Source of the DNA: Candidatus Kapaibacterium sp.
Lineage (GTDB): Bacteria; Patescibacteriota; Patescibacteriia; UBA9934
NCBI GenBank assembly: GCA_044350705.1
Contig: JBILHA010000002.1
Coordinates: forward strand, 178,295 to 242,294
Reading direction: 5' to 3'
Length of the DNA: 64,000 bases
Within the stretch, counting starts at the first letter, position 1; the number at the start of each line of letters is the position of its first letter. Below the pieces are notes generated by a model, which had not been told where the DNA came from, did no database searches, and worked only from the letters and a program-made list of their open reading frames with translations. The translations under genes and the position numbers were made by a program. Below are positions 24,274 through 45,441 of this stretch, piece by piece.

Positions 24274-26022
24274 TTATTCCTCGATCACGACCCGCAGTCC
24301 GCAGCCACTTGACGTGGGATCATCGGCGGCGACCACCGACTGCGCATGTCCGTTCCAGGTTGCAGCTACCGTTCCCTGGATGGTTCCGGGCGGAAACGGC
24401 CCCAGGCAGGACCAGCTTGTCGTACCAGAGATGACGTACTCCACCGAAAAGCGGAGTGCGTCGCCCGGTTCCATGACGCGACGGTAGGTGAGGTGGGAGG
24501 TATCTGACCCCTCCGCAAGCACCCCCACCCAGCTCCGCGGATCACCACCCGCGGGGGTGAACTCCCCCGAGAGGGTGATGCGGCTTGCCGTCGCCGCATC
24601 TGGCGTTGTCCAGGTGAGCACGAGCTCCCTCTCTTCCTCGATGTCGGTCTCCGCCGGTGCTTCTTCTTCCTCTTCCCGCGTTTCTTCTTCCTCAGGCGGA
24701 TCACCCGCGCTCTCGTAGGCTCCTCCCCCAACCGCAGCACCGCCGCAGGTGGTGATCAGAGACTCGGTGAGGCAGGAGATGCCCGTCGCACAGCTCCCGC
24801 GCACGGTCACGATGCTCTCGAACTCGCTCCGCTCCACTTCGAGCACCGTTCTTTCCCAGAACCCCATGAGCAGATAGACGCTCCACGTCTCGATGGGCAT
24901 CGCAACACCATCGCTCATGAGGTACACGTCGCTTGCATCGGCCGGAGAGATGAGGCTTCCATCGCGGTAGCGCGCGTTGCCGCTGTGCACCGGATAGTCG
25001 CCAAGATCGTCGGAGAGATCGGACGCCTGGAGCAGGTCATCGTACGTCGCGGCGCTCATGCCCCACGACTTCACAACCCCCTGCCAGCCGAGCGTACCGA
25101 TCTTCTGTCTCGCACGATACTCATCGCCGCGCGTTCCCATGAGAAGCCACACGCCGGTTCCGCCTTCGTCGTCGTACACCGCGCGCACTGCGGACGCATC
25201 TCTCAGGCTCTCGCCTTCTTCGAAGCAGGAAAGCTCCTCGGGGGAGACGAGCGCAACATGCGCGAAGTCGTAATTGCGGGAGGTGAAGGCGCTCTCGGTC
25301 ACGAACACGCGCCTCTTCCCTTCTTCGATGAGGTACACCGCGCTCTCGAAGGGCGTCTTCACGAGCGTGCCGTTCGGGTGCCAGCGCGGCACAGGAAGGG
25401 ACGACTCGTACCGATGACCGGACGTGAGATCGCAGATCATGCTCGTTACCGGCGTTGCCTGTGCCGGCGTTCCCCGCGTGGCATTGCGCGCGAAGAACTC
25501 GAGCCCCTCCTGCGAGATTCCCTGGACGCCGTCGTCCGCTGCATCTCCCCAGTGACGGCCGATATGCAGATGGTCTCCCGTGGAGTTCCCCGTCGTCCCT
25601 TCGATTGCGATGATCTGGCCCGCCACCACTTCGCTCCCATCCTCCACAAAGATGTCGGACAGGTGCGCGAGGATGATATAGGTACCGTCACCGAGATCGA
25701 TGTTGATGTGCAGACCGAAGTTCGTCGTCGAATTGCGGTCGTGCACGTACGCCACGCCCGCGACCGGCGCGTACACCAGATCGTCGGCGTCGTTGGGGGT
25801 GTCGAAGTCCACGTCGTAGCGCGTTGCGGTTCCCCGGTGGGAGTAGCTCCCTCCGGTCCCCTGGCTGCAGCGGTAGCTCTCCCCTTCGGCGAAGGGCAGA
25901 TGAACCGTCACCGCGTCACGCCCTCCCCCGCCGATTCCGGTGTCTTCAGGAATGCTCAGCGGCGGCAGCGGCGAACAGCTACAGAAAAAAAGTACGAGGA
26001 GCGCACAAATAATGAAGGTCAT
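24274..26022 (-). CDS. Secreted/lipoprotein M23-family metallopeptidase with a large C-terminal domain; high-GC gene
   Basis: Signal MTFIICALLVLFFCSCS. The M23 motifs are HRGTATRYDVDF and GNSTGDHLHIG (G-x-STG-x-HLH). An acidic linker PPEEEETREEEEEAP is present. GC is about 65% versus about 45% in flanking genes. Confidence 0.75.
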   Translation of the reverse strand: MTFIICALLVLFFCSCSPLPPLSIPEDTGIGGGGRDAVTVHLPFAEGESYRCSQGTGGSYSHRGTATRYDVDFDTPNDADDLVYAPVAGVAYVHDRNSTTNFGLHINIDLGDGTYIILAHLSDIFVEDGSEVVAGQIIAIEGTTGNSTGDHLHIGRHWGDAADDGVQGISQEGLEFFARNATRGTPAQATPVTSMICDLTSGHRYESSLPVPRWHPNGTLVKTPFESAVYLIEEGKRRVFVTESAFTSRNYDFAHVALVSPEELSCFEEGESLRDASAVRAVYDDEGGTGVWLLMGTRGDEYRARQKIGTLGWQGVVKSWGMSAATYDDLLQASDLSDDLGDYPVHSGNARYRDGSLISPADASDVYLMSDGVAMPIETWSVYLLMGFWERTVLEVERSEFESIVTVRGSCATGISCLTESLITTCGGAAVGGGAYESAGDPPEEEETREEEEEAPAETDIEEERELVLTWTTPDAATASRITLSGEFTPAGGDPRSWVGVLAEGSDTSHLTYRRVMEPGDALRFSVEYVISGTTSWSCLGPFPPGTIQGTVAATWNGHAQSVVAADDPTSSGCGLRVVIEE

Positions 26023-26651
26023 GGGCCGACGTCTCCGGAGATGAAACGATGATTCGTTTCTTTTCCCCTTGCAGAGGGAGTCCCAAAGGAACTGCAAGGG
26101 AAACCGGAGCGCAGCATATGCCCTGGGGTAAGGACTCCCCTCCTTACCCCTTTATTTATTAAGTATGGAATGCTGTTTGCCCGGCTGTCGTTTTGAAAGC
26201 GCGTTTTTTGGTACCCGCTTTCAGGGCGATCAGGCGCGCGTTTGTCATTCCTGCAGACACTCACGAACGTTCCTTCAAGGTCGTGCCCGAACTCGTCGGT
26301 CGTTCTGCTTCCATATCACCATAAAAAAAGAAGTCTTCAAGTAAAAACCTTTAAAAACTCTTCTCTTTTTTGCGCGTTTTCGTTTCTGGTATCTTTTTTT
26401 CTTTTCATTGTCAGAAAACAATGAACAGCTTTTTCGCAAAACATCTCTTTGAAGCGATGCGTTGTCCCCTCTCCAAAAACACCGTGGGAAAAGCTGTCAG
26501 GAGTGCAAAAACTGTGGATAACCTACAAAAAACACGCCCCTTGCAATGGGCGTGTTTCCTCTCTCTTGAAGCTCGCGTATACGCCCCTCCTGGCCTCCCC
26601 GATGGGGAGGATCTCGGTGGAAACTCCCCTGACTCACCCGAGACGCTTTCA

Positions 26652-27020
26652 TTACTTTCCCTGCAAACGCTTTACTTCTTCGTGAATACGCCCCACTACA
26701 CTTTCCACATCTTGAAATACTTCCTCATTCTTTATTCTCATCACGTGAAATCCCGCTCCTATGAGATAGGCCTCACGCTGCATGTCATAAATTCGATGTC
26801 CAAGTTTTTCATGAATTTTTCCATCGATTTCTATTACCAAACGGAGCGGCCAGAAACAAAAATCAACAATAAAAGGACCTATGCCGTGCTGCCTACGGCA
26901 CCTTACTCCGAGCGCATCGTGCGAAAGATGACACCAAATCACCCTTTCCGCCTGAGTCATCCGCTTTCTCAATTCTCTCCGTCGCTCTTTACTCCTCGCG
27001 GGATTGATGAGTCTTTTCAT
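26652..27020 (-). CDS. DUF559 endonuclease-domain protein (Vsr-like / PD-(D/E)XK fold)
   Basis: 122 aa with ...QAERVIWCHLS...GVRCRRQHGIGPFIVDFCFWPLRLVIEIDGKIHE..., matching the DUF559 pattern. Confidence 0.7.
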   Translation of the reverse strand: MKRLINPARSKERRRELRKRMTQAERVIWCHLSHDALGVRCRRQHGIGPFIVDFCFWPLRLVIEIDGKIHEKLGHRIYDMQREAYLIGAGFHVMRIKNEEVFQDVESVVGRIHEEVKRLQGK

Positions 27021-27291
27021 AGGCTTCCATCCTATCGCAACGCGCTTCTAAGAGTTTCCAAAGGAGCTTCCATACAAGTTTCCAAGCGCACTTCCAAGAA
27101 CCCCCCTCCGGGGGAGGGCTTGGGAGGGGGCCCGGACTCTCATATAAGCCTCTGCGTTTCCCTTTATTCCCACCAGAAATCCCCGCGTTTCCATGAGAAA
27201 TCCCTGCGTATCCTCGCAAAATTCCCTTCACTTGCCTCTTTTCCCCACCCCACCTTGACCCCCCTCATTTATCCACTCTTTTTCCCAAAAC

Positions 27292-27320
27292 TTGCTTTTT
27301 TTCAAAATTTTCTGTTATAT
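27292..27320 (+). promoter_or_regulatory. Candidate sigma70-type promoter for the high-GC lipoprotein gene
   Basis: TTGCTT - 17 nt - TTATAT, about 135 nt upstream of the ATG at 27456. Confidence 0.35.
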
Positions 27321-27455
27321 TAGCGCTGTCTAGGCATCTCCTGCGGCGCAAGCCGAGGTGAGAAGCCAAAACACGTACCTTAAACAACACCACCCCACCC
27401 ACCCGGTAAGTGCCGGGAAAGGTGTCGTGGGCAGTCCATGAGTAAGGAGAGCGCC

Positions 27456-28205
27456 ATGCGCATCTTGATTCTGGCCGCCCTGCTGGGCGGCTGCGGGGGA
27501 TCCTCCCCCGACCTCGCCAACGGCGAGGTCGGCAACGACGGCAACGACACCAACCCGGATGACAAGACCGGCAAGGCCACCCTGTCCTACACCGTCTCGG
27601 TGATGGGCAAGGTCGAGCCCTGCAAGATCAACATCGAGTGCGAAGACATCGACCTGCTGACGGTCTCCTCCGGAGAAATCGTCGAAGTCGATGTCCCCGC
27701 CTCGTGCGTGATCTCTGCGGGTCTCCTGGACTACACCGACATCTTCGGGTACCCCGTCCACCTGGGCGAAGATGGCGAGTACTGGGCGGCAACCCCGCTC
27801 ACGCTCGACCTCGAGCCCCAGGACGAAATCCTGGATCAGTTCATCACCTTCAACGTCTTCGAGCCCGGCTACTACGACTGCGAGTACGACAAGTACGAGC
27901 TGGATGAGTCCGCCGGAGATCTCAAGGGCGAGCAGTGGATGGAGGACCATCCGGTGGACGAGCAGTTCATCGAGGTCGGCCAGGACGGCATCGTCGAGAT
28001 CGAGGGCAACAACGAAACCCTCGATGTCGTCGGTGGACCCCAAAGCCACCTGCAGACGGTCGACGACGGTCTCGTCCTCGTGGTGGCTGGTGAGGAAATC
28101 CCCTACTACATCGCCGAGTCCGACATCGGCGTTGACAACTTCTCCCTCACGGTGGTCAACACCGAGTTGGGACATGTGTCCGACGTCCGGTGCGAGCTGG
28201 ACTAG
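27456..28205 (+). CDS. Acidic lipoprotein of unknown function; high-GC gene
   Basis: Lipoprotein signal MRILILAALLGGC (lipobox LGGC) and a strong SD AAGGAG 7 nt upstream. GC is about 65%. The antisense 355-aa ORF is an artefact of the high GC. Confidence 0.7.
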   Translation: MRILILAALLGGCGGSSPDLANGEVGNDGNDTNPDDKTGKATLSYTVSVMGKVEPCKINIECEDIDLLTVSSGEIVEVDVPASCVISAGLLDYTDIFGYPVHLGEDGEYWAATPLTLDLEPQDEILDQFITFNVFEPGYYDCEYDKYELDESAGDLKGEQWMEDHPVDEQFIEVGQDGIVEIEGNNETLDVVGGPQSHLQTVDDGLVLVVAGEEIPYYIAESDIGVDNFSLTVVNTELGHVSDVRCELD

Positions 28206-28439: not shown

Positions 28440-31400
28440 TTACGGAGTTACCGTGATGACTCCATCGTACTCCACCCAAGGATTTATCGAGGAGTTTTGT
28501 TCTGGGTAAATTCCGTATGAACACTCGCTGTAATCCATTGTACTGGACGCATTGGCATCGTTGTACATTCCCACAAAGCATCCGCCTGGACTTGTCGTTC
28601 CATAGCTTGAAGTGCTTGATTCGATTGCGTTTCCATCCGTACATGTTCCCGTACACCAGCCCCAGTTGTCGCGGACGTGGACGCGGGGACGGAAGACGCA
28701 GGAATCTGCGGCATCGTCACCGGTTTCGTCGATCGCACAAGGGAACTCGTCGTATTCGCCGTCGCCATCGGTATCATCACAGCGGTCGCCACGAAGTACT
28801 TCTGATGTACAGGTATAGACGTGGTTGTAGTTGAAGTAGTACGGATCGCAGCTTTCATCGGTAAGACCCCATTCAGAATCAAGGTCACATTTTGATTCTT
28901 GCTGGCCGTCCTGCAAACCACGAGCGTTCTTGAAGTAGTTCTCGTCGTCATCTGATCCGGTTTGCATTCCGTCTCCCCAGTCAATCATGACCTGACGGAT
29001 AGGAAGCTGGTTCTTGTCTGCGGCCGCGTAGAACTTAATCGTCGCATTGAAGAACTGAATTCCGGATTGATCACCTGTTTCTTGACCGTTGAGGGTAATC
29101 GCACTCTGCGTTCCTTCTTCACACATAAGGCCGTCACTTGAACACGAACCGACATCGACCGCCCATACCGTTGGCGGAACTCCTTCTGCCGGACGGACGT
29201 CGTACGCTTCATCATCTGCATCATAGTCTGCCCATAGACTCGTCTCCGTAGGAAGAACGGAGAAATAATCTCCTACATCTTCCCAATCACCATCTATATA
29301 TTCTCGTTCACCTGTAAAGTCACCCTTCCAGATCCATAGGGCAGCATCTGCTACCGAAGCGAATACTTGCGTAATTGATTCAAGCGAGTACTGCAGTGGC
29401 TCTGAAGTCGCCGTATAGAAGTAGTATGAGGATGTATCTGATACGTATGCGTACGGATGTCCATCCCATCCATATCCCACACCGTCCCAGCTTCCTGTAA
29501 AGGTGAATGGAATATATGAGCGTGCTTGTAACAGCTCAGATGCAGGATCACCTAAGGTTCCTACGTCAGGATATCCGCTTGGGCACGAATCAAATGTAAC
29601 TCCCGTCGCAATCGTAATGTCGTCTCCTCCGTGATAGTTATCTGAGCACTGCGCTACATAGAATGGCGCTTCGTATTCCTGAACCGGCTTATCGAGATTG
29701 ATAGCGCCAAATATGCCTGGGGTTGTTTCTTGATTGTATTCAACATTGGAAGACAGGTCTGACTGCAGCGTATGTCCATTGTAAACACGATCCGTCCATG
29801 CATACGATCCTTCGTCATCAGATGAAACCTGCACTACTACAGAACATGCAATATTTTCATCCATAGCATCATGGAATCTGTCTGCATAGATTTCAGGAGC
29901 GTTCATCCAAAGATTTCGGTATCCGGTTCCTCCCGATGAGGACTCCGTATCGTCTGCACCGTCGCTTTGTGGATAGTCCGTAATATCTAGCACGTCATAG
30001 AAAATATCCGCCTCTGCGTATTCTCCTCCACGCATGTAAATACCGCGTACTTTACAGTCCTGATAATCATCTGCAACCGTGTCGAAATGACCGTAGGTTC
30101 TCTCCTCTGAATCGCTACTTCCGCTGCTCGTATCTCCTCCTCCTTCTTTTGGATTGAGCGATGCATACCAGACACGCGTTCCGTCATTACTCGTACCTTC
30201 ATTGGATATTCGACTATCTTCGCTTGGGTCACAAGACTCATAGTCGTACTCCACTTCCCCATCGCTTTCTACATATTTCGCAGAGTTCTCAGGAACGCAT
30301 ATATACGGACAGTCATTATCTCCCACGCCATCCCTACACGTATCAGCTGAGTAGTTATTACTCACTCCCGCACCACGGGCACGTGCTCCCATGATCGCAA
30401 AGAATCCCTCCGGGCAATGCACCGCCTGATCACAGGCCGCATCACTCGTGCTCCACGCATCCTCATCGTTACCCACACTACTATCATCACTCTCCGCACA
30501 TGCAACACCCTCCGTATATCCATCTTGAATTACGCTGCTTGGCGAAGGGGTGATCGTTGAGAATGCCTGTACGTCTGCACACATGTAAATATCTTCGAAG
30601 AATCCCGCGCTTGCGTACTTTGCCTGCAAGTCTGTATCTCCCTGTAGGCGGTCAACCGGCAACCAAGAGATACACGCCTGCTTTGTACGGTCGCCAAGGA
30701 TATTGAGCGACGTATCTTTCTCGAGACAGAAGCCATTCAAGCCGTAGATTACGTCTTCTCGGGTGGACTTTGCACAGGTCGATCCATCTCCACACTGCTC
30801 GTCTTCCGTGCAGTATCCTCCTGAACGCTCTCCACCCTGACATACACCCAATTGATCAGCTACCGCAATACAGGATCCGGATTCGCATGTGCTTCCATCA
30901 GTACATATTTCCCCTGCATCCGTATCCGCCTCTTCCTCACCATCTCCATCAAGATCACCTCCACAAATCGAGAATTCTGGATCCCAATCTTGGTTGTAGT
31001 ATCTCGTTTCCATCCCTTCTCCGAAGCTCACCTTGGTGTACGAACAGTCACATACTTCCCCATATGCACACGCTTCAACGTTCTCAAATCCCGAGAGAAG
31101 ATCGTAGGGCAATGCATCATACGTAGGATCGGTGTCAATCGTTCCTTGATCCGAAGGGTCATACCACGCTTCAACAACTTCATTTGGGAATGGACTCGTT
31201 CCCTCTGGGTATGCGCGACAAATCTTTCCTTCAGTAACGCCGTTTGCGTACGTTTCACCATCAGGCGTCAGCAAACACTTGCTATTGATACATGATCCGA
31301 GTTTGAGTTCGGCAGCGGGAATGAAGGTTTCTGCAGAGCTACAGGTGCTCGCTTCTGCGGTTTCACTATCGTAGTCTTCGATCGCCACGTCATTACCTAC

Positions 31401-34400
31401 TTCTGCACACGTACCGCTGTAACACGTTTGACCTTCTGAACAATCAGCTGCGGTCTGACAGAGTACCGGATTTCCACTGGCATCTTCGTCGAGGTCGTAA
31501 CATGCGCCAACAATACAGTCACCATCGCCGCATTGGTCGCTTGAAGCACATGCGGCACCGTTTGACGAGCAGTACCCCACTGCACACGCATTGCCATAAT
31601 CTTCCGAACAGCTTCCGGCATCAAGAACGAGCGCGTAGTCAACCTCATCAATGAGTCCTGCGGCTTCCGTCGCCTCTGGAGACATACAAATACCCGAACC
31701 CGCCATACATGCCTCTCCCACGGCTTCACACGAGGAGTCGCTGGCAAGCGAGGGGGAAGCTGTACTCGCACCATATACACAATATGCAATCGGGCTTACA
31801 TCAGCTTGACTCAGCGACTGCACGGGGAATAAATCAGGAATCGCCATGCCCGAGTATTCATTTCCATACCAAGAGGTATCGCGTGAGGCATACCACTCCT
31901 TATCAAAGAGCACATCTGGCTCTTCCATGTCCCACTCTGCGCAGGAGGAAGTTCCGGTTGTTGCATCGTAGTCGGTACAGAGCTCGATATCGGTACACGT
32001 GTTGATGAAGCTTGCGGTATCTTCGTCCCAACGTGGGTTATCGCTTGCACAGGCAAGCCATTCTGAACATGCACGGTCGCGATTTACTTTCAATACCGTG
32101 TTTACATCATTTTCTTGGCGAGGCACCCAATCGAAGTTTGCATTGAGTTCATCTTCCATCCATGCGCTAAATCCAAGCGATCCAAAAAGTCCTGGATCAA
32201 CACGTACCTGGGTTCCACACGTTACCGCTTCAACACTTCGTCCAGATTCACTTTCAACCAATGCACAGTCCGTAGAATCTACACAGGAGCCACCGAATAC
32301 GAAGAGGTCATCTCGATCGTAATCCCCCCCAAACGAGAGTTCGCTTGCGAGCTTTGCTCGATAGGTATCTCCATCGGTTAAATCGTATACCTCCCCGTAG
32401 TCATAAATACAGCGCGTAGCACAGAGGTCAATTTCAAGACCATCCGACGTGGTAATCGTTGTATCTCCCCCATTCTCACAATCGATAGGATCGACCAACC
32501 CGTATGGCTCGGTACCAAACAATTCATCAGCATGACGACTCGATACTTCCGTTGCAGAAGCATTTGCCGTAAGTGAGGTGCTGGACGTGTCATAGAACAT
32601 GGCACACCCGTTCTTGAGCGACACTTGTCCATCACACTTTTGACTATCCGAAAGGCCGTATTCACTTAGGGTGTCGTTGTTGAGATAGAAATAAGATGTT
32701 CCGTCGCTCATGCCGTAAATCTCCCCATCATCTTGCGCGAGGGTGTCCTGGAATTCGCTACAGGTGTCATAGGTTGCGTCACATGTTCCTGCCCAGCCGC
32801 CAAATCCAGCATCTCCGTTCTTCCAAATACCAGACTCATCCCCTCCAATGACATACGAAGGATTCTGCGCATTACAAGTCTCCCCCGATCCACAATCCGC
32901 GCTACTTCCACATGCATCTCCTTCATTTCCCCCGGAATCTTCACACGTTCCGTAACAGAAGTCCTGCGTTCCTTCGCGGAACCATCCGGTGTATCCCACC
33001 CCGTCTATCGTGACATCCGTGCGGTATTCACACTTTTGATCAAGCGGGTGCTTAAAGTAATACGTTGCCGCCTGGTTGGTTGTGAACGCATCACAGAAAA
33101 GCTCTTCATGGGCGCAGAGCGTGCTGTCGTATTCATCTGGAAGATTTAAGAAGTACACACTTTCTGCACCGTCCGTACTATTACGATCTTGATTCCAGTC
33201 TGGATCACCGAATTCTGTACATCCTGCAGCGGAAGCAGAGCACGTTACCTCGTCGGTCACCACCAAGAACATTGCCTGGTCTGCAGGCACGATGGTTGTT
33301 TCCGGTCCATACGAAACGGCAGTTTCGCCAAGTCCCCAAGCAGGCGTGAAGCCATCCATTGAGAAGAGACAGGAAGATTCACCTACCGCAATCGTACAAA
33401 GGTATGGCGAAGCCTCGTCGAAATCTGCCGAGGATTCATAGAAGTAATAACACGCGGTTGCCGATGTTGCAGTATCCGGCTCACTGTCTCCATCGTCGTC
33501 GATATTGTTACAGGTTGCGTTCACAGTTTTTGCCGTGTGACTTGCGCTTTCCTGGGTCTTGAAGAAGGCGTCGCATCCTACTTTGTCTTCATCACAGAGT
33601 GAGCTAAAGCTCTTGAGATACTCAGTCTCATCGTCTTGCGTCGTGTATTCCTGACAACCCAAGTAATACTGCGGGCTTGCATCTCCCGTGACCGATTGAT
33701 CGCACGACGCAGGGGTTACCCAAGAATCTCGGATCACCGTGATATTCTCCTCACCCTCTCGGAGAACGATATTGTCGACATATGCCGAACCCGTAGGCAC
33801 GAGCACAAGCGACGTACCCTCACCAAAACGTGGGTAATCCTCCGCATCCATGACGAGCGGTCCGAGAGTAATTTGCTGCCATCCGTCTTCAAGCTCTACT
33901 GCGCTATCAAATGCGAGATCAATAGAAGGAGATGAAGGATCTGCCTCAAAGTCAAAGCCTACCTCAAGCGTACCCGTTCCCTTTGCGACCACACTTACCG
34001 TGTAGGTTTTTCCGGCAAAGAGTTCGTTATGCAGCGTTCCGCAATAGCCATCATTCTCCGCTATCGTACATTCTCCACCAAAACTGAGCGCCGTACCCGC
34101 ACATCCTCCTTCGGTCGTACAGGTTCCCCCGTTATCTGCGATAAAGGAAGTGACCGGTCCGGTCATGAGCATGGAGTGCCCATCAGAAGCAAGTGATTCG
34201 TTACTGTAGGTCGCATATGAAGCTGATGCCGCATCCCATTGATTGAGCGTTCCGCTTTCAAAGATTTCTTCGAGCACTAAACGACTATTTCTGCTTCGAC
34301 CTCCTGCGTATGCACGACAACCGTTTGCCGAGGCATCACACGAGGTACTTTCTTCTGGGTAGCCGTAATAGCGACACTCTCCCGAGTCTCCCACGTAGTA

Positions 34401-37400
34401 TCCTCCTGAATCTTCACAAGTGATCTGTTGCGCTGCCGCTGTCTCCCCTGCGACTTCCGTCTTTCGGTATGCCTGACAGGAATTATGAATCGTCACGGTT
34501 TTTGTCCATTCTCGGTAATGAATGTTTCCGCTTTCGTCGTAGAATTCTCGACAATCTGCGTTCGTAAAGATATCTGCACGGGAGTTACAGTCTTCCGTAT
34601 CCCAATCGTAATAGCCGTCTCCATCATCATCAGCGGAGTCATTACAAGTAATGCCGTCATCGGTCGCGGTCCAGTTACTACAAGGCGCCAAGTTAGGAGC
34701 GGTATCGGTTACCCCATCGGTTCCTGTGTGCGTATAGCTTGAAGAACCGAGATCTGACTCCAAGAGCGTCCAGGTTTGCAGCTGATATCCGTCTTCATCT
34801 GATCCCTCCCAGGTGTAATATGTCGCTTCTGTTCCTGCAGCTTGTGTTTCAGTGACACATGCACGCAAGAAGCTGTAGTACTCCTGCTCTTCTGTTGCGA
34901 GGTTGGTAAATTCGTCACATCCCACTTCTTCAGCGGAACACTCAGTTGCGGTATCAGGAATGAAGTACACCGCATCTATTCCATCAGGTTCATAGAGCGT
35001 TGCCTCTTGGCGATAGGTGTCGTATCCCGCACACTCCGAAGGACAGCTATCTAACTCCGTTGCAATACCTGAAAGCGCAGGATCGCCGTTTGTTGGGGTG
35101 TACATCGTACATCCCATGTCTTGCTCGGAGCACACCTGTGCGTAGTTTGCACATTCCGCAGGATCATCTTCGCTTCCAGTACATCCAAGATATGCAGGCG
35201 CAACCTTTGCGACTACGGTCGTGTAGTCGGTGTCGCTATATCCATTTACTGGAGTAGACGTATCTTCCCCTTGTTCGAGCTGCATGCTATCAACATAGCC
35301 ATCGAATGCGAGAACGTATAAATCACCGAATACGCGCAATGACGGCTCTGGCAGAGGCGGAACGGTAAAGGTACAGCTAAAACGCTCATACGACGTTCCT
35401 TCCGGCTGCATGTTTTCAATTCCTACCCCGTCGGTTCTTGTTGCGCCAAAAATATCTACGTAGCTATCGTCACAATCTCCAATAATTGCCAGTCCTTCAA
35501 TATCAATGCCCGCTCCTTCTTCATCTTTCAATGCTAATCCTACGCTTACCGTATCGGTACCTGCATCGGTTGCTTGGCGCGCATAAAATGAAAGCGTGTA
35601 GGTACTTGCTTGCGTTAATTCAATACCAGGCTGATAGAGCGCTCCACGCCCACCGGATCCTGGAGAAATCGCCACCTCTCCCTCTCTTGCAACACTGCCA
35701 TCCAAAGAAACGGTTGAAGGCCATGAGGTTCCTGCAAGGTGATAATCAAACCAGCCGTCTGGACGGTCATCGCTGTCGTCATCCTCTTCAAAACTTGGGT
35801 TCAATACGACATTGAGGCGAAGATCGGTGTCGCGTTCGATCAGCGTGGAACATCCTCCTTCTTCTTCATCGCAATCTTCGATCTGACTATTGAAGTAGAT
35901 ACGAGATGCGTATGTTTCGCTGTCTGCATCCGCGCCTGCAATATCATCAATTGCCGCAAAAGCAAATGTTCCGTCATCTTGTTGCTCTTTTACCGTGTTA
36001 TACCAGCGACATCCTACGGTGTCCGAAGTACAAGGTCCGGGATCAACGGTATTCTTTAACAGCGCGATATCATCCCCCGCTGAATCTTCAAACACCAAAC
36101 AAGAAGCCGCGTATTCTGGACAGCTCTCTCCGCGGAATTGCCACGTATTTTCTTCTGCCACACAGTAGCCGTATCCTCCAATACAGTTTCCATTTTCATC
36201 CTCTGCGATACAGCTTGGCATATCCACACACACCTGTGCGCGTTCATCTGCCTCCTTGGTCAGCAAAAGTTCTCCATACGCCTGCATGCGGCACTGGGTA
36301 TCCGGGTACTTCAGCACCCAATCCGGATCGATCATTTTGCACCAGGGATGGTTATCATCCGGAAGGCCATCTGGACCGCAGGAGTTAAATCCGTTGATTA
36401 CCTCCTGAAGGGTAACCGGGCTTTCTGCAGAATTTGCTGAGGAATTTGCCGCAAGTTCCCATCCGATAGAAATTACGCGTGCTTTTCGAAGCTTTACCAA
36501 GTTTCCATAACAGAATCCATACGTGTAACAGAAAGCATCCTGGTTGCGAGCCGCGTCAGAGGAAGGAATGAGCGGCCAATCCCCATTCATAAGACCGTCA
36601 TCGATCGCTTCTTCAATGGTTAGGGGCGCCCCAGACTCTGCTCGTGCAATTGCTGATACAAAATTTGAATCCGCTACACAGTTATATAGTCCGCGCGTTG
36701 ATGAACCTGGGCAGGTAATAAACTCCGACAGAATACTGTAGTTCGTAATCTGCAACGGCGCTGCAGTGAGCAATGAGCGATACCGATCTGCCGCTGCCTG
36801 CTGCGTTCCGAGCGCAAAACTCTCAGGATCAAACGGATCAACCTGCGTCACGTCAAAATCAAAGAGCCCCATCCAAATGCGCTCCTGGAGCTTTGAAAGC
36901 AGGGTATTCGTAAATACACTTGCTGCATGTATTCCCACCTGTCTAATCAGGTCTTTATTTCCCAGCATGGCGAATGTTGCCTGCTGACGTACATCTCCAC
37001 TGTTTTTCTGCGCATCTTTTACCTGCGTTGAAAGGATATCAGCCGGAGTTTCTACATTTCCCGTAATAAAATCTACAATATCCTTAAATCCTCCATCATT
37101 GAGCTTTTTCTGTACACCGATCAGGGGAAGAAAAGTCGTTTCTCCAAAGACATCGGTATACACCCCAAGTCCCGCGCCAAACTCTGCCTTTTGGGGATCG
37201 TACATGTTGGCAAGTTCCGCAAGGACGAGCTGGTTTTTAAAAGGCGCTTTGTATCCCTCTAAATCTGCAATAAATGCCTGCCAAGTTCCTTCTGGACCAA
37301 ACATTTTGTTAAAGTCACATTTTGGCTCTGGACGATCGAAGACCCCCTTAATACCCAACTTGAACTGCAGCAAAATGTACGGGGTTGAAGGCGCACAAAG

Positions 37401-37808
37401 ATCAAAATTCGAGAGAAGCCCCCCTGCGCCTTCTATCGTTTCAGATAGAGATCCGATCGCTTCACCAGCAGCGCCCATTGCAAGCTCCTTCAGATACTCG
37501 CCATCAGGGGTGCCGTCAAAGAGCGGCTCTTCTGCCGAGCCTCCGGTTACAATGCGAACCGCCGCATCGTAGGCCAAGCGGTCAGCTGCAAATGAAACGG
37601 CATTCACCAATGCGGTCACAATTGCGGCCTGCATGGTGTTCGTTATGAAATCCGTCACTGCATTTTTAATCCACTCTAAGACACGAGGGGCGTCCGCTAC
37701 CGTGGAGTTTTGTGCGTACGCGATACGAGCCCCTGCTATCGGCGTTGCAATAAAAAATATCACCATCCATGCCGCAAAAAGCTTTTTCGCAAAACCGTTG
37801 AAATTCAT
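28440..37808 (-). CDS. Giant secreted protein (3122 aa), Cys- and Asp/Gly-rich, with thrombospondin type-3-like Ca-binding motifs; probable surface adhesin
   Basis: Uninterrupted 9.4-kb ORF with signal peptide MNFNGFAKKLFAAWMVIFFIATPIAGARIAYAQ. It contains several hundred Cys residues and DxDxDGxxD motifs (DDDGDGYYDWD, NIDDDGDSEPD, DTDGDGEYDE, DLDGDGEEEAD). No TM segment follows the signal. Confidence 0.85.
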   Translation of the reverse strand: MNFNGFAKKLFAAWMVIFFIATPIAGARIAYAQNSTVADAPRVLEWIKNAVTDFITNTMQAAIVTALVNAVSFAADRLAYDAAVRIVTGGSAEEPLFDGTPDGEYLKELAMGAAGEAIGSLSETIEGAGGLLSNFDLCAPSTPYILLQFKLGIKGVFDRPEPKCDFNKMFGPEGTWQAFIADLEGYKAPFKNQLVLAELANMYDPQKAEFGAGLGVYTDVFGETTFLPLIGVQKKLNDGGFKDIVDFITGNVETPADILSTQVKDAQKNSGDVRQQATFAMLGNKDLIRQVGIHAASVFTNTLLSKLQERIWMGLFDFDVTQVDPFDPESFALGTQQAAADRYRSLLTAAPLQITNYSILSEFITCPGSSTRGLYNCVADSNFVSAIARAESGAPLTIEEAIDDGLMNGDWPLIPSSDAARNQDAFCYTYGFCYGNLVKLRKARVISIGWELAANSSANSAESPVTLQEVINGFNSCGPDGLPDDNHPWCKMIDPDWVLKYPDTQCRMQAYGELLLTKEADERAQVCVDMPSCIAEDENGNCIGGYGYCVAEENTWQFRGESCPEYAASCLVFEDSAGDDIALLKNTVDPGPCTSDTVGCRWYNTVKEQQDDGTFAFAAIDDIAGADADSETYASRIYFNSQIEDCDEEEGGCSTLIERDTDLRLNVVLNPSFEEDDDSDDRPDGWFDYHLAGTSWPSTVSLDGSVAREGEVAISPGSGGRGALYQPGIELTQASTYTLSFYARQATDAGTDTVSVGLALKDEEGAGIDIEGLAIIGDCDDSYVDIFGATRTDGVGIENMQPEGTSYERFSCTFTVPPLPEPSLRVFGDLYVLAFDGYVDSMQLEQGEDTSTPVNGYSDTDYTTVVAKVAPAYLGCTGSEDDPAECANYAQVCSEQDMGCTMYTPTNGDPALSGIATELDSCPSECAGYDTYRQEATLYEPDGIDAVYFIPDTATECSAEEVGCDEFTNLATEEQEYYSFLRACVTETQAAGTEATYYTWEGSDEDGYQLQTWTLLESDLGSSSYTHTGTDGVTDTAPNLAPCSNWTATDDGITCNDSADDDGDGYYDWDTEDCNSRADIFTNADCREFYDESGNIHYREWTKTVTIHNSCQAYRKTEVAGETAAAQQITCEDSGGYYVGDSGECRYYGYPEESTSCDASANGCRAYAGGRSRNSRLVLEEIFESGTLNQWDAASASYATYSNESLASDGHSMLMTGPVTSFIADNGGTCTTEGGCAGTALSFGGECTIAENDGYCGTLHNELFAGKTYTVSVVAKGTGTLEVGFDFEADPSSPSIDLAFDSAVELEDGWQQITLGPLVMDAEDYPRFGEGTSLVLVPTGSAYVDNIVLREGEENITVIRDSWVTPASCDQSVTGDASPQYYLGCQEYTTQDDETEYLKSFSSLCDEDKVGCDAFFKTQESASHTAKTVNATCNNIDDDGDSEPDTATSATACYYFYESSADFDEASPYLCTIAVGESSCLFSMDGFTPAWGLGETAVSYGPETTIVPADQAMFLVVTDEVTCSASAAGCTEFGDPDWNQDRNSTDGAESVYFLNLPDEYDSTLCAHEELFCDAFTTNQAATYYFKHPLDQKCEYRTDVTIDGVGYTGWFREGTQDFCYGTCEDSGGNEGDACGSSADCGSGETCNAQNPSYVIGGDESGIWKNGDAGFGGWAGTCDATYDTCSEFQDTLAQDDGEIYGMSDGTSYFYLNNDTLSEYGLSDSQKCDGQVSLKNGCAMFYDTSSTSLTANASATEVSSRHADELFGTEPYGLVDPIDCENGGDTTITTSDGLEIDLCATRCIYDYGEVYDLTDGDTYRAKLASELSFGGDYDRDDLFVFGGSCVDSTDCALVESESGRSVEAVTCGTQVRVDPGLFGSLGFSAWMEDELNANFDWVPRQENDVNTVLKVNRDRACSEWLACASDNPRWDEDTASFINTCTDIELCTDYDATTGTSSCAEWDMEEPDVLFDKEWYASRDTSWYGNEYSGMAIPDLFPVQSLSQADVSPIAYCVYGASTASPSLASDSSCEAVGEACMAGSGICMSPEATEAAGLIDEVDYALVLDAGSCSEDYGNACAVGYCSSNGAACASSDQCGDGDCIVGACYDLDEDASGNPVLCQTAADCSEGQTCYSGTCAEVGNDVAIEDYDSETAEASTCSSAETFIPAAELKLGSCINSKCLLTPDGETYANGVTEGKICRAYPEGTSPFPNEVVEAWYDPSDQGTIDTDPTYDALPYDLLSGFENVEACAYGEVCDCSYTKVSFGEGMETRYYNQDWDPEFSICGGDLDGDGEEEADTDAGEICTDGSTCESGSCIAVADQLGVCQGGERSGGYCTEDEQCGDGSTCAKSTREDVIYGLNGFCLEKDTSLNILGDRTKQACISWLPVDRLQGDTDLQAKYASAGFFEDIYMCADVQAFSTITPSPSSVIQDGYTEGVACAESDDSSVGNDEDAWSTSDAACDQAVHCPEGFFAIMGARARGAGVSNNYSADTCRDGVGDNDCPYICVPENSAKYVESDGEVEYDYESCDPSEDSRISNEGTSNDGTRVWYASLNPKEGGGDTSSGSSDSEERTYGHFDTVADDYQDCKVRGIYMRGGEYAEADIFYDVLDITDYPQSDGADDTESSSGGTGYRNLWMNAPEIYADRFHDAMDENIACSVVVQVSSDDEGSYAWTDRVYNGHTLQSDLSSNVEYNQETTPGIFGAINLDKPVQEYEAPFYVAQCSDNYHGGDDITIATGVTFDSCPSGYPDVGTLGDPASELLQARSYIPFTFTGSWDGVGYGWDGHPYAYVSDTSSYYFYTATSEPLQYSLESITQVFASVADAALWIWKGDFTGEREYIDGDWEDVGDYFSVLPTETSLWADYDADDEAYDVRPAEGVPPTVWAVDVGSCSSDGLMCEEGTQSAITLNGQETGDQSGIQFFNATIKFYAAADKNQLPIRQVMIDWGDGMQTGSDDDENYFKNARGLQDGQQESKCDLDSEWGLTDESCDPYYFNYNHVYTCTSEVLRGDRCDDTDGDGEYDEFPCAIDETGDDAADSCVFRPRVHVRDNWGWCTGTCTDGNAIESSTSSYGTTSPGGCFVGMYNDANASSTMDYSECSYGIYPEQNSSINPWVEYDGVITVTP

Positions 37809-42366: not shown

Positions 42367-42723
42367 TTACAGCTTAATCTCTTTTGCAAATTTTCCTACT
42401 AAAGGAAGCTCCCACTTTTCTCCCTTATACGCATGCCATGCTCCTCCCACAATAAGCACAAATACAAACAGGTTATACGCCATGACTACCAGTCCTCCAA
42501 TAATCGGAATGAGCATTGCAACGATGGGACTGAGAATTCCTCCAATTACGGAAAGGATGGTCACGATAAGTCCCTGTTTGCCATGCCATACGGAATATTC
42601 ATCTTTCTTTCCTAAGTACAGGGGTACAAAAAACAACGGCGGAAGATAGCCAACGGCTGCAAAAAGGCGTGACTGTTCATCAGGCGCACCAGGGATGACC
42701 GTGTTTTCTGGAGTGGTGTTCAT
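42367..42723 (-). CDS. Small membrane protein, DUF4870-like
   Basis: 118 aa, 3 TM, with conserved ...YLPPLFFVPLY...WHGKQGL... features resembling the DUF4870 family. Confidence 0.5.
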   Translation of the reverse strand: MNTTPENTVIPGAPDEQSRLFAAVGYLPPLFFVPLYLGKKDEYSVWHGKQGLIVTILSVIGGILSPIVAMLIPIIGGLVVMAYNLFVFVLIVGGAWHAYKGEKWELPLVGKFAKEIKL

Positions 42724-42830
42724 ATGGATAAAGGGTACCAGATCAGCTTTTGCGCGCCAACATTTTCTTGATTTTTTTGCTATTTTCTGCTAAATTCTTG
42801 CCGCACAGTTCCGTGCATTCGGAGGTCCTC

Positions 42831-43382
42831 ATGGACGAAATCTCGGGGCCTCACGGCCCCCACCAGCTCCCCGCGGTCCCGGTGGAGCGCCCGACCGGCC
42901 TTGTGGCCAGTACGGTCCACGACGCTGCTGAGCGTCTGCGCCCGCACTGGCCCGGCGTGGCCGATTGGGCGCAACGGCATGTGTGGGCCGCGGTCTTCAG
43001 CAGCATCGGCTCCGCGGTCGGCACCCTGCTCATCGTCGATCTTCTCGTCGTCCGCGGGCTCTCGAGCCTTGCGGAATACAAGGAGACCGAACCGATCTCG
43101 CCACTGCCGGTCGAGGTCAGCATTGCCCCCGCCGCCGACCCTTCCCTGATCGCCCCCGGCGAGCAGAAGTACACGGTGAAGCGCAACGACACCCTGAGCG
43201 ACATCGCGGAGAAGCACGAGGTCGCGCTCAGCGCCCTGCGCGAGCGCAACGCGGTCACGCTCGAGGCCTGGCGCGCTCAGTGCCTCGAGAACGCCAAGCT
43301 TCAGCCCGGAGCCTGCCCGGACGTCGTGTTCAAGGGCGGGAAGCTCATCATCCCCGCCCCGCAGGCCGTCAGCCCGGAGTAA
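42831..43382 (+). CDS. Membrane-anchored LysM-domain protein; high-GC gene
   Basis: SD GGAGG 5 nt upstream of the ATG; one TM (VWAAVFSSIGSAVGTLLIVDLLVV). The LysM motif is YTVKRNDTLSDIAEKHEVALSALRERN. GC is about 68%. A local AT-rich promoter TTGATT-17-TAAATT lies at about 42765-42795. Confidence 0.7.
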   Translation: MDEISGPHGPHQLPAVPVERPTGLVASTVHDAAERLRPHWPGVADWAQRHVWAAVFSSIGSAVGTLLIVDLLVVRGLSSLAEYKETEPISPLPVEVSIAPAADPSLIAPGEQKYTVKRNDTLSDIAEKHEVALSALRERNAVTLEAWRAQCLENAKLQPGACPDVVFKGGKLIIPAPQAVSPE

Positions 43383-43485
43383 GCATGACTCCGGGCATCA
43401 GAGTCCGCATCGCTCGATTCTTCGGGTGGTGCCGGAACTCTCGTCACGCCGTATCCCATCCGTGGGGTGCGGCGTTTATGCTTTT

Positions 43486-43522
43486 AAAAGAAAGGAACGC
43501 CCGTGTACGGACGTTCTTTTCT

Positions 43523-43524
<2 letters not shown>
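43486..43524. terminator. Bidirectional terminator between the LysM gene and groEL
   Basis: AAAGAAAGGAACG-loop-CGTTCTTTTCTTT: a 13-bp stem with one mismatch. Confidence 0.55.

Positions 43525-45441
<1,917 letters not shown>

Follow-up and report, generated by a model that had tools for sequence, protein, structure and literature searches.

A slot-bound, hypervariable and GC-rich gene for a predicted membrane-anchored LysM protein in a group of Patescibacteria

Strain-variable surface and accessory loci, such as capsule, O-antigen and antigen alleles under balancing selection, are exchanged by homologous recombination between conserved flanks. Genes of outlying composition are routinely read as recent horizontal transfers. 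The effects reported for GC-biased gene conversion (gBGC) in bacteria come to a few percent of GC3, spread over many genes. The process itself has reportedly been described in bacteria by Lassalle et al. in 2015. YneA of Bacillus subtilis, ChiZ (Rv2719c) of Mycobacterium tuberculosis and SpoIIIM are small proteins with a cytoplasmic N-terminus, a transmembrane (TM) helix, a linker and an extracellular LysM domain. In YneA, the residues D46 and T47 are required for peptidoglycan (PG) binding (PMC13396833).

The gene described here codes for a predicted LysM membrane protein. It lies antisense in the spacer between groEL and a DUF4870 gene of the window, which is the whole 64-kb stretch of DNA that was analysed. 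The surroundings are housekeeping genes (prfB and groEL/groES besides DUF4870), as the initial annotation of this DNA had described. The gene model, the promoter TTGATT-17-TAAATT and the GGAGG Shine-Dalgarno (SD) sequence were also all found where that annotation had put them (Table 1). It had reported a block of about 68% GC; the GC content is 68.3% in 42805-43475, and 65.8% when the limits of that annotation (42760-43440) are used. The edges of the block are sharp in 100-nt windows, where GC changes from 0.38-0.47 at 42700-42849 to 0.64-0.75 at 42800-43449 and then to 0.50. The coding sequence has a GC1 of 0.72, a GC2 of 0.48 and a GC3 of 0.88, compared with a GC3 of 0.473 ± 0.044 for the 42 other genes of the window (z = 9.2). 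The only other GC3 outliers in the window are an M23 peptidase gene and an acidic lipoprotein gene.

Table 1. Coordinates of the LysM transcription unit, its neighbours and the two other GC-rich genes of the window.
Feature	Position	Strand	Details
LysM CDS	42831-43382	+	183-aa ORF; bitopic membrane LysM protein; GC 0.694, GC3 0.88
Promoter	42768-42796	+	-35 TTGATT (42768-42773), 17-nt spacer, -10 TAAATT (42791-42796); read from sequence
Shine-Dalgarno GGAGG	42821-42825	+	5 nt before ATG; GGAG at the equivalent place in orthologues
Transmembrane helix	42993-43049	+	Residues 55-73; sole hydrophobic segment; Kyte-Doolittle maximum 2.01
LysM-like domain, extracytoplasmic (predicted)	43164-43355	+	Residues ~112-175; Pfam, AF2, Foldseek
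3'UTR and intrinsic terminator	43383-43485	+	64.5% GC; stem 43446-43475 then U-tract; terminator scan
groEL terminator hairpin	43495-43516	-	Convergent with LysM terminator
groEL	43523-45133	-	Bounds the slot on the right
DUF4870 (MamF/MmsF-like) small membrane protein gene	42367-42723	-	PF09685, 3.2e-8; divergent; left border of the slot
M23 peptidase gene	24274-26097	-	Pfam M23 2.5e-14; lipoprotein-type N-terminus; GC3 0.76
Acidic lipoprotein gene	27438-28205	+	pI 4.05; LLGGC lipobox; GC3 0.875; convergent with gene of 3122-aa giant protein

Positions 42768-43485 form a self-contained one-gene transcription unit with promoter, SD sequence, ORF, 3'UTR and terminator. The promoter lies in an AT-rich stretch (42760-42804, 31% GC) and is of the sigma-70 type, native in character and conserved across the clade: both hexamers and their spacing are kept in the orthologues of loci L006-L009, L039, L040 and L041, and the -10 element of orthologues reads TATTAT, TAGTAT or TACTAT. 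It was not called by a consensus scanner because it matches at 8 of 12 positions. The 10-bp stem of the terminator is kept with compensatory changes in seven orthologues, and the 3'UTR/terminator region is 100% identical among the window, L002 and L003. Rfam gave no credible match in 42600-43650, which includes the 3'UTR. Compared with close orthologues, the coding sequence has a dN/dS of 0.33-0.41, therefore the ORF is a real coding gene. A hairpin homologous to the groEL terminator also stands 3' of groEL in L004, L005 and L041, and DUF4870 adjoins the LysM gene in all nine orthologous loci that cover that side (L002 begins inside the LysM gene). A 24-nt inverted repeat (75%) between the DUF4870 coding sequence and the LysM terminator was taken as chance.

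The predicted topology of the protein consists of a cytoplasmic N-terminal region of about 45 residues, one TM helix, a Pro/Ala-rich linker of about 30 residues and, at the C-terminus, a LysM domain. This agrees with the single-pass LysM architecture proposed by the initial annotation, which is borne out by the hydrophobic segment and by the LysM assignments of Pfam, AF2 and Foldseek. In the AF2 model, one long helix (residues 41-81) spans the TM segment. Pfam LysM (PF01476) matches residues 114-140 with 28.3 bits against a gathering cut-off of 20.9 (E = 1.7e-6), and the match is limited to profile positions 1-27 of 43 because a segment of about 20 residues, which forms a third helix, is inserted between helix 2 and beta2. 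The modelled domain has the order beta-alpha-alpha-(extra helix)-beta (E112-115, H122-128, H133-139, extra H141-154, E171-174), with block-mean pLDDT of 89-94 for residues 111-150 and 76-87 for residues 151-180. In Foldseek searches of the PDB, the best 8 matches and nearly all of the best 36 are LysM domains or LysM-containing proteins (probability about 1.0, target-normalised TM-score up to 0.8). A PDB profile search returned only LysM proteins (LytE, Ecp6, AtlA, MltD and similar) over residues 101-139. The residues G110, E111, Y114, D120, L122, I125, A126, R139, L144, W147, C162, P175 and A176 are invariant in the family and T121 is common. The cysteine pair C151/C162, borne on the inserted segment, is nearly invariant and is predicted to form a disulfide.

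The LysM domain is predicted to bind the glycan strands of PG at the outer face of the membrane. Only the D120/T121/L122 motif and the conservation of the final strand point to glycan binding. The most likely target would be the cell's own nascent wall, because the linker is so short. The protein may thus act as a membrane-to-wall tether, or as a modulator of wall synthesis or hydrolysis, like the small TM-plus-LysM proteins YneA, ChiZ and SpoIIIM.

Full-length homologues were found by exhaustive HMMER search of 1.84 billion representative proteins, exclusively in related Patescibacteria of about 48-51% GC; the matches that were not full-length covered the generic LysM core only. Among the matches listed from 5.8 billion clusters there were no further full-length homologues, and a word-indexed protein search gave at least three homologues, or at least nine with a profile, among the matches listed. 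About 14 members of the family are known, many of them on short contigs. Ten loci with DNA were examined (the window, L002, L003, L006, L007, L008, L009, L039, L040 and L041). In all ten the gene occupies this one groEL-DUF4870 spacer, points the same way and is GC-rich, with GC3 of 0.73-0.95 versus 0.42-0.58 in the flanks, and the housekeeping genes of the carrier sub-clades are only about 72% identical in nucleotides. In two relatives, L004 and L005, the LysM gene is absent and groEL is directly followed by DUF4870. L004 is nested in the clade of L006, L039 and L040 (prfB 94-96% identical in amino acids), yet it is without the whole unit, the gap running from just past the groEL terminator to a point between TTAT and TGGCG. 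Because L004 is nested among carriers, its lack of the gene represents a loss. The gene of L003 is split by a 1459-bp ISL3 element with a 9-bp target-site duplication, and that of P0274 is frameshifted. Judged from these comparisons, the LysM gene is an accessory gene confined to one lineage, a group of ultra-small Patescibacteria of about 48-51% GC. It has been in one slot since before the split of three sub-clades, and several times it was lost by deletion, disrupted by an IS or put out of frame.

The coding sequence is much more variable than its surroundings. It is 55-61% identical in nucleotides, compared with 82-86% for prfB and DUF4870 and 91-96% for its own UTRs. Between L006 and L039, for example, identity is 60% for the coding sequence versus 86% for prfB and DUF4870, 95% for the 3'UTR and 96% for the upstream region; between the window and L003, identity is 53-85% across 42950-43310 and 93-100% in the flanks. 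The synonymous divergence is 2-8 times that of the flanks. In the comparison of L002 with L003, dS is 0.39 versus 0.02-0.09 in the flanks and dN is 0.14 versus 0.002-0.013. For residues 43-78 (the TM region), a dS of 1.18 and a dN of 0.27 were obtained. Among close relatives, the TM helix and the linker are the most diverged part. Everywhere dN/dS is below 1 (0.21-0.56), so positive selection is not demonstrated, and the high variability of the cytoplasmic N-terminal module, the most variable one, fits relaxed constraint better than phage or host recognition. The two modules of the protein also differ in relationship: in P0009 the N-module is nearest to P0013 (64%) and the C-module to P0004 (76%), and between P0013 and P0031 identity is 77% for the C-module versus 33% for the N-module. 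These alignments indicate a mosaic gene with a coding sequence close to saturation, set between non-coding flanks that are conserved. A diversity-generating retroelement target was considered and rejected: no part of the gene recurs elsewhere in the 64-kb window, and the differences span the coding sequence, include indels and are not adenine-restricted (31 of 108 are G<->C).

The other two GC-rich genes have deep orthologues too. The M23 gene is the first of a conserved T4SS-like cluster that reaches 16126. It has more than 120 full-length homologues, and all those with source names come from Patescibacteria or Uhrbacteria. Its orthologues have a GC3 of 0.76 in L035 and 0.73 in L038, versus about 0.3-0.45 for their neighbours; the gene is GC-rich within genomes of 41-50% GC and is not obviously hypervariable. 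The lipoprotein has an orthologue at the same position in L035, which is 46% identical and has a GC3 of 0.80. Both genes are still GC-rich in orthologues that are 46-55% identical, and by this comparison they are old residents that stay GC-rich. Head-on orientation was dismissed as a cause of high GC, since the M23 gene is co-oriented with its neighbours and other genes on the + strand have normal GC3.

As separate observations, the GC-rich set of these genomes also includes a collagen-like/DUF7151 protein, and the GC-rich genes of relatives also include AstE/AspA-like and sulfotransferase-like genes, which are probably cytoplasmic. A literature search for GC-rich gene sets in Patescibacteria returned nothing relevant.

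The third-position substitutions were polarised with three sequences (the window, L002 and L003). In the LysM gene, 20 S->W, 9 W->S and 22 S<->S changes were counted, versus 100, 99 and 16 in the flanks. S<->S changes are therefore as common as S->W in the LysM gene, whereas S->W is 6-fold commoner than S<->S in the flanks, so that, measured against S<->S, the gene is depleted about 6-fold in S->W changes (Fisher p = 3e-6 for S->W versus S->S, LysM versus flanks). Amelioration would be expected to give S->W and W->S at about 9:1, which is rejected by the observed 20:9 (p = 0.002; small sample), and the implied equilibrium GC3 is about 0.78. These results indicate that the high GC is maintained, and is not a relic or the fading signal of an import. 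At the third sites of the gene, S->W changes nevertheless outnumber W->S changes 2.2:1 (p = 0.03 versus 1:1); its GC may be drifting down slowly, or S->W may be inflated by parsimony bias. The GC excess also reaches GC1, GC2 and the non-coding 3'UTR, suggesting that the pressure bears on the region's nucleotides and not on the choice of codons.

On balance we consider it probable, though by no means assured, that this is an old, slot-bound, hypervariable gene for a LysM tether whose GC is maintained; its function and its recombination-linked evolution are what we infer. Allelic segments may be swapped among strains and sub-clades by homologous recombination, and a recombination-linked, GC-biased (gBGC-like) fixation could then be what raises the synonymous divergence and the GC alike. 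The same force might act on a few other wall-directed genes, such as those of the M23 peptidase and the lipoprotein. These three steps are proposed with low confidence. We know of no report of gBGC this strong (GC3 +0.4) in bacteria, which counts against the favoured reading. Wholesale replacement of highly diverged alleles would also leave little heteroduplex for biased repair, and the M23 gene, GC-rich while not obviously hypervariable, suggests that recombination and GC may be unlinked. A bolder version, to which we give little credence, is that Uhrbacteria-like Patescibacteria have a locus-restricted GC-biased diversification (a hot spot of recombination or gene conversion, or a targeted repair pathway) bounded by conserved non-coding flanks, which would hold a few wall- or host-interface genes (the LysM anchor, the M23 peptidase of the T4SS-like cluster and lipoproteins) at GC3 0.75-0.95 in genomes of about 48% GC and drive the excess of synonymous and non-synonymous divergence observed.

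The main alternative to a gBGC-like process is selection on GC-rich DNA or RNA. High GC would then be kept by mRNA stability or structure, or by translation kinetics of secreted wall-active proteins, and recombination would not be involved. The filtering of S->W changes is in line with this, as are the lack of obvious hypervariability in the M23 gene and the enrichment of the GC-rich set in exported wall-directed proteins (M23, lipoproteins, LysM and collagen-like/DUF7151). However, the exported 3122-aa giant protein and the membrane proteins of the window have ordinary GC3, and the probably cytoplasmic GC-rich genes of relatives do not fit the pattern. The reach of the excess into GC1 and GC2, that is into amino-acid content, and over the 3'UTR also speaks against it. 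We regard this alternative as somewhat unlikely, with an appreciable chance of being right.

With respect to function, the protein could be a stress-induced division inhibitor of the YneA/ChiZ type, whose TM segment docks on FtsW and whose LysM domain blocks septal glycan synthesis. It has the same architecture, a small bitopic TM protein with a linker and, C-terminally, a LysM domain. ChiZ has a disordered cytoplasmic N-terminus too, inhibitors of this type are dispensable and fast-evolving as the LysM gene is, and the PG-binding D-T of the GDTL motif of YneA is kept here (D120 invariant, T121 common). Beyond the LysM domain there is no sequence similarity, however, and the TM segment, which is the FtsW-specificity element of YneA, is the least conserved part of the present family; its poor conservation argues weakly against a conserved partner such as FtsW. 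SOS control was rejected because no LexA-type box was found: the divergent neighbour is DUF4870 rather than lexA, and no GAAC-N4-GTTC box with up to one mismatch occurs in 42724-42830, the promoter included, which is a weak negative as this consensus may not be that of Patescibacteria. Division inhibition would also leave the GC and the excess dS unexplained. Such an inhibitor is accordingly an unlikely identity for the protein.

It is rather improbable, to our judgement, that the gene is old but that its alleles are re-imported by homologous replacement through the conserved flanks from an as yet unsampled reservoir of high GC, be it phage, plasmid or a GC-rich sister or host lineage, which would supply the GC. 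Conserved non-coding flanks around a saturated coding sequence, elevated dS and mosaic modules common to different sub-clades would all be expected from such imports. Five of the ten contigs break at the LysM gene, which suggests strain-level heterogeneity and would suit a reservoir as well. On the other hand, all ten copies stand at the slot and none was found in another context. A family-alignment scan of JGI metagenome contigs gave generic LysM proteins only, none of them in the syntenic context. The GC-rich 3'UTR is itself conserved within sub-clades, and the M23 gene, operon-borne and high in GC inside genomes of 41-50% GC, would call for a second reservoir in parallel.

The initial annotation had read the gene as a foreign, host-type insertion and, together with the M23 peptidase and the acidic lipoprotein, as one of three repeated acquisitions. 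Its observation that all three GC-rich genes are envelope- or wall-directed was confirmed. A recent insertion from a GC-rich organism such as a host, as one of three independent wall-gene acquisitions, is in contrast very unlikely. The LysM GC3 does lie 9 SD above the genes of the window, and the profile of GC1, GC2 and GC3 resembles that of a gene from a high-GC genome, as judged from the general relation between codon-position and genome GC. The insertion claim also holds in part, since the unit behaves like an indel: the spacer is uninterrupted in L004 and L005, and it took an IS element in L003 and, in L006, an orphan gene of low GC. Against a recent insertion, the absence in the nested L004 is a loss. 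Comparison of synteny, as that annotation had proposed, gave two relatives without the gene, and carriers that share the exact slot. An orthologue of normal GC at this position was looked for among the ten loci and none was found; the orthologues there are high in GC, and in this different manner they count against a recent transfer. The slot and the high GC are common to all ten loci even though the sub-clades are so diverged in housekeeping genes. No homologue of the LysM protein was found in any GC-rich lineage among the 1.84 billion representatives, the full-length homologues all belonging to the same Patescibacteria group, and with the conserved native promoter this gives no support to the labels foreign and host-type. 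The borders of the slot have no integrase or recombinase ORF and no significant repeats, and no tRNA lies within 9 kb. An integron cassette or mobile element was likewise discarded, with no recombinase and no attC-like site other than the plain terminator. The substitution spectrum rejects amelioration, and repeated acquisition is further opposed by the deep same-position orthologues in Patescibacteria of the M23 gene (L035 and L038) and the lipoprotein (L035). Although the abrupt composition change is confined to one gene, an assembly chimera or contamination has a negligible probability, because a junction of the window recurs with 100% identity on an independent 1132-bp ENA contig, and NCBI and Logan assemblies of other samples show homologous junctions at either end, in agreement with the initial annotation, which had preferred other causes to contamination.

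The three composition outliers of this DNA are seen as old residents, with a GC-richness that outlasts synonymous saturation among relatives, and this undercuts GC-based calls of horizontal transfer in candidate-phyla genomes. With its 0.55 kb and dozens of its alleles in public metagenomes, the LysM gene is a compact natural system in which to separate biased gene conversion from selection on GC in bacteria. A small wall-directed set is flagged as evolving under special rules, including a peptidase that heads a T4SS-like cluster implicated in epibiotic life. If the locus-restricted GC-biased diversification were true, it would be the strongest single-gene bacterial case of gBGC-like evolution, or a new hypermutation mechanism. 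The protein itself represents a new LysM variant on a YneA/ChiZ-like scaffold, marked by its inserted helix and cysteine pair.

Compared with known systems, the locus resembles a genomic islet in its atypical composition, its indel behaviour and a spacer that also takes an IS element and an orphan gene. Unlike an islet, it has no mobility genes, tRNA, repeats, donor or amelioration, and its position and promoter are conserved in the clade. Conserved flanks, a diverged centre, mosaic cross-lineage alleles, presence/absence and inactivated variants, and assembly breaks are shared with strain-variable surface loci. The difference is that a single 0.55-kb gene is concerned here, with dN/dS below 1, its most variable part predicted to be cytoplasmic and a composition offset that is strong and persistent. 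As in bacterial gBGC, higher GC3 goes with signals of recombination, and non-synonymous and non-coding sites are also affected; here, in contrast, single genes show an offset of +0.3 to +0.45 that is kept over deep divergence, and the causal link is a conjecture. The LysM domain (PF01476/CBM50) shares the beta-alpha-alpha-beta core, with a profile match above the gathering score in its N-terminal half. The D-T-L motif of the loop that follows beta1 is conserved, and so is the hydrophobic last strand, L-[VI]-[IV]-P-A. The domain differs from the typical one by the segment of about 20 residues between helix 2 and beta2, which forms the third helix and bears the cysteine pair, and it occurs as a single copy on a membrane anchor instead of a repeat array on an enzyme. 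With YneA, ChiZ and SpoIIIM the protein shares small size and the layout described above, and the putative PG-binding residues of YneA are conserved here (PMC13396833). It differs from these three in having no detectable homology outside the LysM domain, a TM helix that is not conserved, an extra helix in the LysM domain, and a gene that is both hypervariable and GC-rich.

The GC-rich block that the initial annotation placed between groEL and a DUF4870 gene (PF09685) was borne out, with sharp edges. In 100-nt windows, GC content is 0.38–0.47 ahead of the block, steps up near 42800 to 0.64–0.75, and drops near 43480 to 0.50; the block itself (42805–43475) contains 68.3% GC. The GC content of its LysM gene is 0.694 (GC1/GC2/GC3 = 0.72/0.48/0.88). 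GC3 of the other 42 window genes is 0.473 ± 0.044 and nowhere exceeds 0.59, placing the LysM gene 9.2 SD out; the only other composition outliers are the genes of an M23 peptidase and an acidic lipoprotein. The promoter-like hexamers and the Shine-Dalgarno sequence noticed earlier were also found in place; a generic scanner did not call the promoter, which matches at 8 of 12 positions.

Features discussed in the text (window positions unless a relative's locus is named)
Feature	Position	Strand	Remarks
LysM ORF	42831–43382	+	183 aa; sole plausible ORF in the GC-rich block
LysM promoter-like hexamers	TTGATT 42768–42773; TAAATT 42791–42796	+	17-nt spacer; read from sequence
Shine-Dalgarno GGAGG	5 nt upstream of LysM ATG	+	read from sequence
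LysM 3'UTR	43383–43485; L006 8598–8715; L039 1683–1800; L040 2760–2877; L041 10553–10660		~110 nt, GC-rich
LysM terminator	hairpin 43446–43475, plus U-tract	+	closes 93-nt GC-rich 3'UTR
groEL terminator	43516–43495	-	convergent with LysM terminator
ISL3-family IS in L003	L003 10235–11693		1459 bp; terminal inverted repeats (GGATCACACG...); 9-bp target duplication (GGGGTGTCG)
Orphan gene in L006	L006 8732–9751	-	339 aa, 37% GC, GC3 0.29
T4SS-like cluster	26097 to 16126	-	M23 first gene
M23 peptidase	24274–26097	-	GC3 0.76
M23-lipoprotein interval	26100–27440; L035 7800–9900 and 12100–14650		variable
DUF559 endonuclease-like gene	26652–27020		in window interval
Collagen-like/DUF7151 gene	L035 12846–13745		GC-rich, secreted; in L035 interval
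Acidic lipoprotein	27438–28205	+	GC3 0.875, pI 4.05
Giant protein	28440–37808	-	3122 aa, Cys- and Asp-rich, exported; ordinary GC3 (0.46)

A word-indexed search of 5.8 billion clusters returned three matching proteins: a protein identical to the window's, from an independent 1.1-kb ENA contig whose junction to groEL is the same (L001), a partial, 75% identical copy adjoining groEL (L002, GCA_009921885.1), and a copy between DUF4870 and groEL on a Logan contig, interrupted by an ISL3 element (L003). Exhaustive HMMER searching of 1.84 billion representatives added about ten full-length homologues (~145–200 aa, 33–47% identity), and its remaining matches covered the generic LysM core only. DNA was fetched for seven distant homologues (L006–L009 and L039–L041). 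All seven occupy the same slot, divergent from DUF4870, and are also convergent with groEL wherever the contig reaches far enough. Their contigs contain 48–51% GC, and the LysM genes have GC of 0.61–0.74 and GC3 of 0.73–0.95, with neighbours' GC3 at 0.42–0.58. A foreign origin found no backing here, as no copy of this gene outside the groEL-DUF4870 slot or in a GC-rich genome was found in the searches and fetched loci. These proteins make up a new membrane protein family with a variant LysM domain, restricted to a single chromosomal slot within one clade of Patescibacteria. Five of the ten LysM-bearing contigs (L001, L002, L009, L039 and L040) stop within the gene or at most 265 bp away, a pattern that would fit assemblies breaking over strain-level differences or where coverage falls across the GC-rich segment.

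The LysM gene had been regarded as an insertion, and two GTDB genomes located via DUF4870 (L004, 'Patescibacteria group bacterium', and L005) indeed show the order groES, groEL, ~80 bp, DUF4870, prfB without it. However, L004 falls within the carrier clade L006/L039/L040 in a distance tree of prfB and DUF4870 (prfB 94–96% aa identical). Removing the entire LysM unit from the spacer of the carrier L041 gives the L004 spacer; the missing stretch starts just past the groEL terminator and ends at TTAT|TGGCG, on the upstream side of DUF4870. The parsimonious reading is that the gene was anciently present and lost later. Inactivated alleles were also detected, IS-split in L003 and frameshifted in P0274; together with the losses, they show a dispensable gene that is inactivated frequently. 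Both halves of the L003 orthologue remain in frame, so the ISL3 insertion is recent. In P0274 (Logan contig, 12.8 kb), the N-terminal 75 residues are Arg-rich and resemble out-of-frame translation of GC-rich DNA, and a normal LysM module makes up the C-terminal half; a frameshift in the allele or an error in assembly is the probable cause. The spacer takes in DNA of both compositional extremes: in L006, an orphan gene with no Pfam match shares it with a 71%-GC LysM gene.

The high GC of the LysM gene is maintained and is not a relic. Housekeeping genes are ~72% identical in nucleotides between sub-clades, so their synonymous sites are saturated; despite this, all LysM orthologues retain GC3 of 0.73–0.95. 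Substitutions were polarised among the window, L002 and L003. At LysM third positions, 20 changes from G/C to A/T (S→W), 9 W→S and 22 S↔S were counted, versus 100, 99 and 16 in the flanks, so that S→W, set against S↔S, is depleted ~6-fold (Fisher p = 3e-6). The ratio near 9:1 expected from amelioration toward GC3 ~0.48 was rejected (binomial p = 0.002); going by the per-site rates, GC3 would equilibrate at ~0.78. Because the GC excess also reaches GC1, GC2 and the non-coding 3'UTR (64.5% GC), it points to pressure on the region's nucleotides rather than on codon choice.

The same gene is hypervariable between conserved flanks. Compared with L002 and L003, the flanks are 93–96% identical in nucleotides, and 95–100% identity holds for the promoter, the first ~120 and last ~70 nt and the 3'UTR, versus 53–85% for the gene centre (42950–43310). 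The dN/dS of 0.33–0.41 against these close relatives indicates a constrained coding sequence. Its dN is 0.14–0.15 versus 0.002–0.04 for the neighbours, and its dS is 0.35–0.47 versus 0.03–0.25, reaching ~1.0–1.2 in the TM and linker segments; between L002 and L003, dS is 0.39 for LysM and 0.02–0.09 for the flanks. The contrast is stronger in the second sub-clade (L006 versus L039), where the CDS is 60% identical, prfB and DUF4870 86%, the upstream region 96% and the 3'UTR 95%. The nearest relative of the homologue P0009 is P0013 for the N-module (64%) and P0004 for the C-module (76%), and P0013 and P0031 share 77% identity in the C-module versus 33% in the N-module. Since module identities are discordant, the gene is mosaic and recombining. 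The favoured explanation of the evolutionary pattern, with low confidence, is exchange of allelic segments through homologous recombination coupled to GC-biased fixation. The main alternative, selection acting on GC-rich DNA or RNA, is less likely, and repeated import out of a GC-rich reservoir not yet sampled is more doubtful still, every fetched copy lying in the one slot.

The 3'UTR outdoes adjacent housekeeping CDS in conservation in three of four sub-clade pairs compared: it is 91–95% identical in the L006/L039/L040 pairs (housekeeping 82–86%) and 75% in L006-L041 (prfB 88%, DUF4870 80%). Parts of it are common to different sub-clades. It has no Rfam match, and covariation supports the terminator stem, the one structure established there; the region may act in cis as a regulatory element or give rise to an sRNA. 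The groEL phylogeny (window 43523–45133; L004, L005, L006, L008, L041) is at odds with prfB/DUF4870. Window groEL (536 aa) matches that of L008 at 94% of amino acids and 81% of nucleotides; for the 552-aa groEL of L004, L005 and L006, the figures are ~75% and 71%. Window prfB is ~81–84% aa identical to all of these. A recombination boundary may lie at the LysM slot.

The two companion genes likewise stay GC-rich in relatives. More than 120 full-length homologues of M23 were found, and all those with a source name are called Patescibacteria or Uhrbacteria. In the T4SS-like cluster, it is followed by 958-aa and 583-aa membrane proteins, PrgI-like, TraC-like and VirB4-like (640 aa) proteins. The gene order is the same in a Uhrbacteria genome of ~41–44% GC (L038, 10001–19503), and M23 is the only GC-rich gene of the cluster in both. 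GC3 is 0.76 and 0.73 in M23 orthologues of 55% and 48% identity (neighbours ~0.3–0.45), and a 46% identical lipoprotein orthologue (L035) lies in the same place, convergent with the giant protein gene, with GC3 of 0.80. As GC-rich orthologues stand at the same places in relatives, all three genes are long-standing residents with persistent GC-richness, and the proposed repeated acquisition of host-type genes is not supported. Further GC-rich genes in relatives encode exported (collagen-like/DUF7151 protein, lipoprotein) or probably cytoplasmic products (AstE/AspA-like, sulfotransferase-like); because of the latter, a cell-wall link is suggestive but not exclusive. The LysM family joins hypervariability between conserved flanks with a maintained GC excess common to a few other wall-directed genes. 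It offers a clear counter-example to inferring HGT from composition and lends itself to asking how bacteria maintain GC.

The L035 M23-lipoprotein interval also holds a PemK toxin, HicA/HicB and an Avd-like/23S-rRNA-IVP four-helix protein. The giant protein, with a weak CBM_4_9 match in relatives, is kept beside the GC-rich lipoprotein in L035, L003, L006 and L041. The L005/L035 record (CAYPWV010000004.1) is titled 'uncultured Gammaproteobacteria bacterium', probably wrongly, judging from its gene-for-gene synteny with Patescibacteria loci (groES-groEL-DUF4870-prfB-epimerase run, giant protein, M23).

Pfam LysM matched residues 114–140 (28.3 bits, cut-off 20.9; first 27 of 43 profile positions), and a PDB search with an 11-member family profile returned LysM proteins only, over residues ~101–139. 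The AF2 model built from the family alignment (mean pLDDT 72.7; block means 89–94 for residues 111–150 and 76–87 for 151–180) contains a helix (22–36), a long TM helix (41–81; hydrophobicity peak 55–73) and a disordered linker, followed by a LysM domain with strand 112–115, helices 122–128 and 133–139, an extra helix 141–154 and strand 171–174. In Foldseek against PDB, the best 8 and nearly all of the best 36 matches were LysM domains or LysM-containing proteins. G110, E111, Y114, D120, L122, I125, A126, R139, L144, W147, C162, P175 and A176 are invariant in the family alignment, and C151 nearly so. The protein is thus a LysM variant on a single-pass membrane anchor, with an inserted helix that a C151-C162 disulfide probably holds in place. 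Oriented N-in/C-out, it would bind peptidoglycan glycan strands, and since the linker has only ~30 residues, the likely target would be the cell's own membrane-proximal wall, as with YneA, ChiZ and SpoIIIM.

This is not a new kind of system. YneA, ChiZ and SpoIIIM have a similar TM-plus-LysM build; however, no LexA-type box was found upstream of the LysM gene (42724–42830) and the family's TM helix is not conserved, so the protein is not grouped with these division inhibitors. The LysM protein family also conserves the D-T motif, which YneA requires to bind peptidoglycan (PMC13396833).
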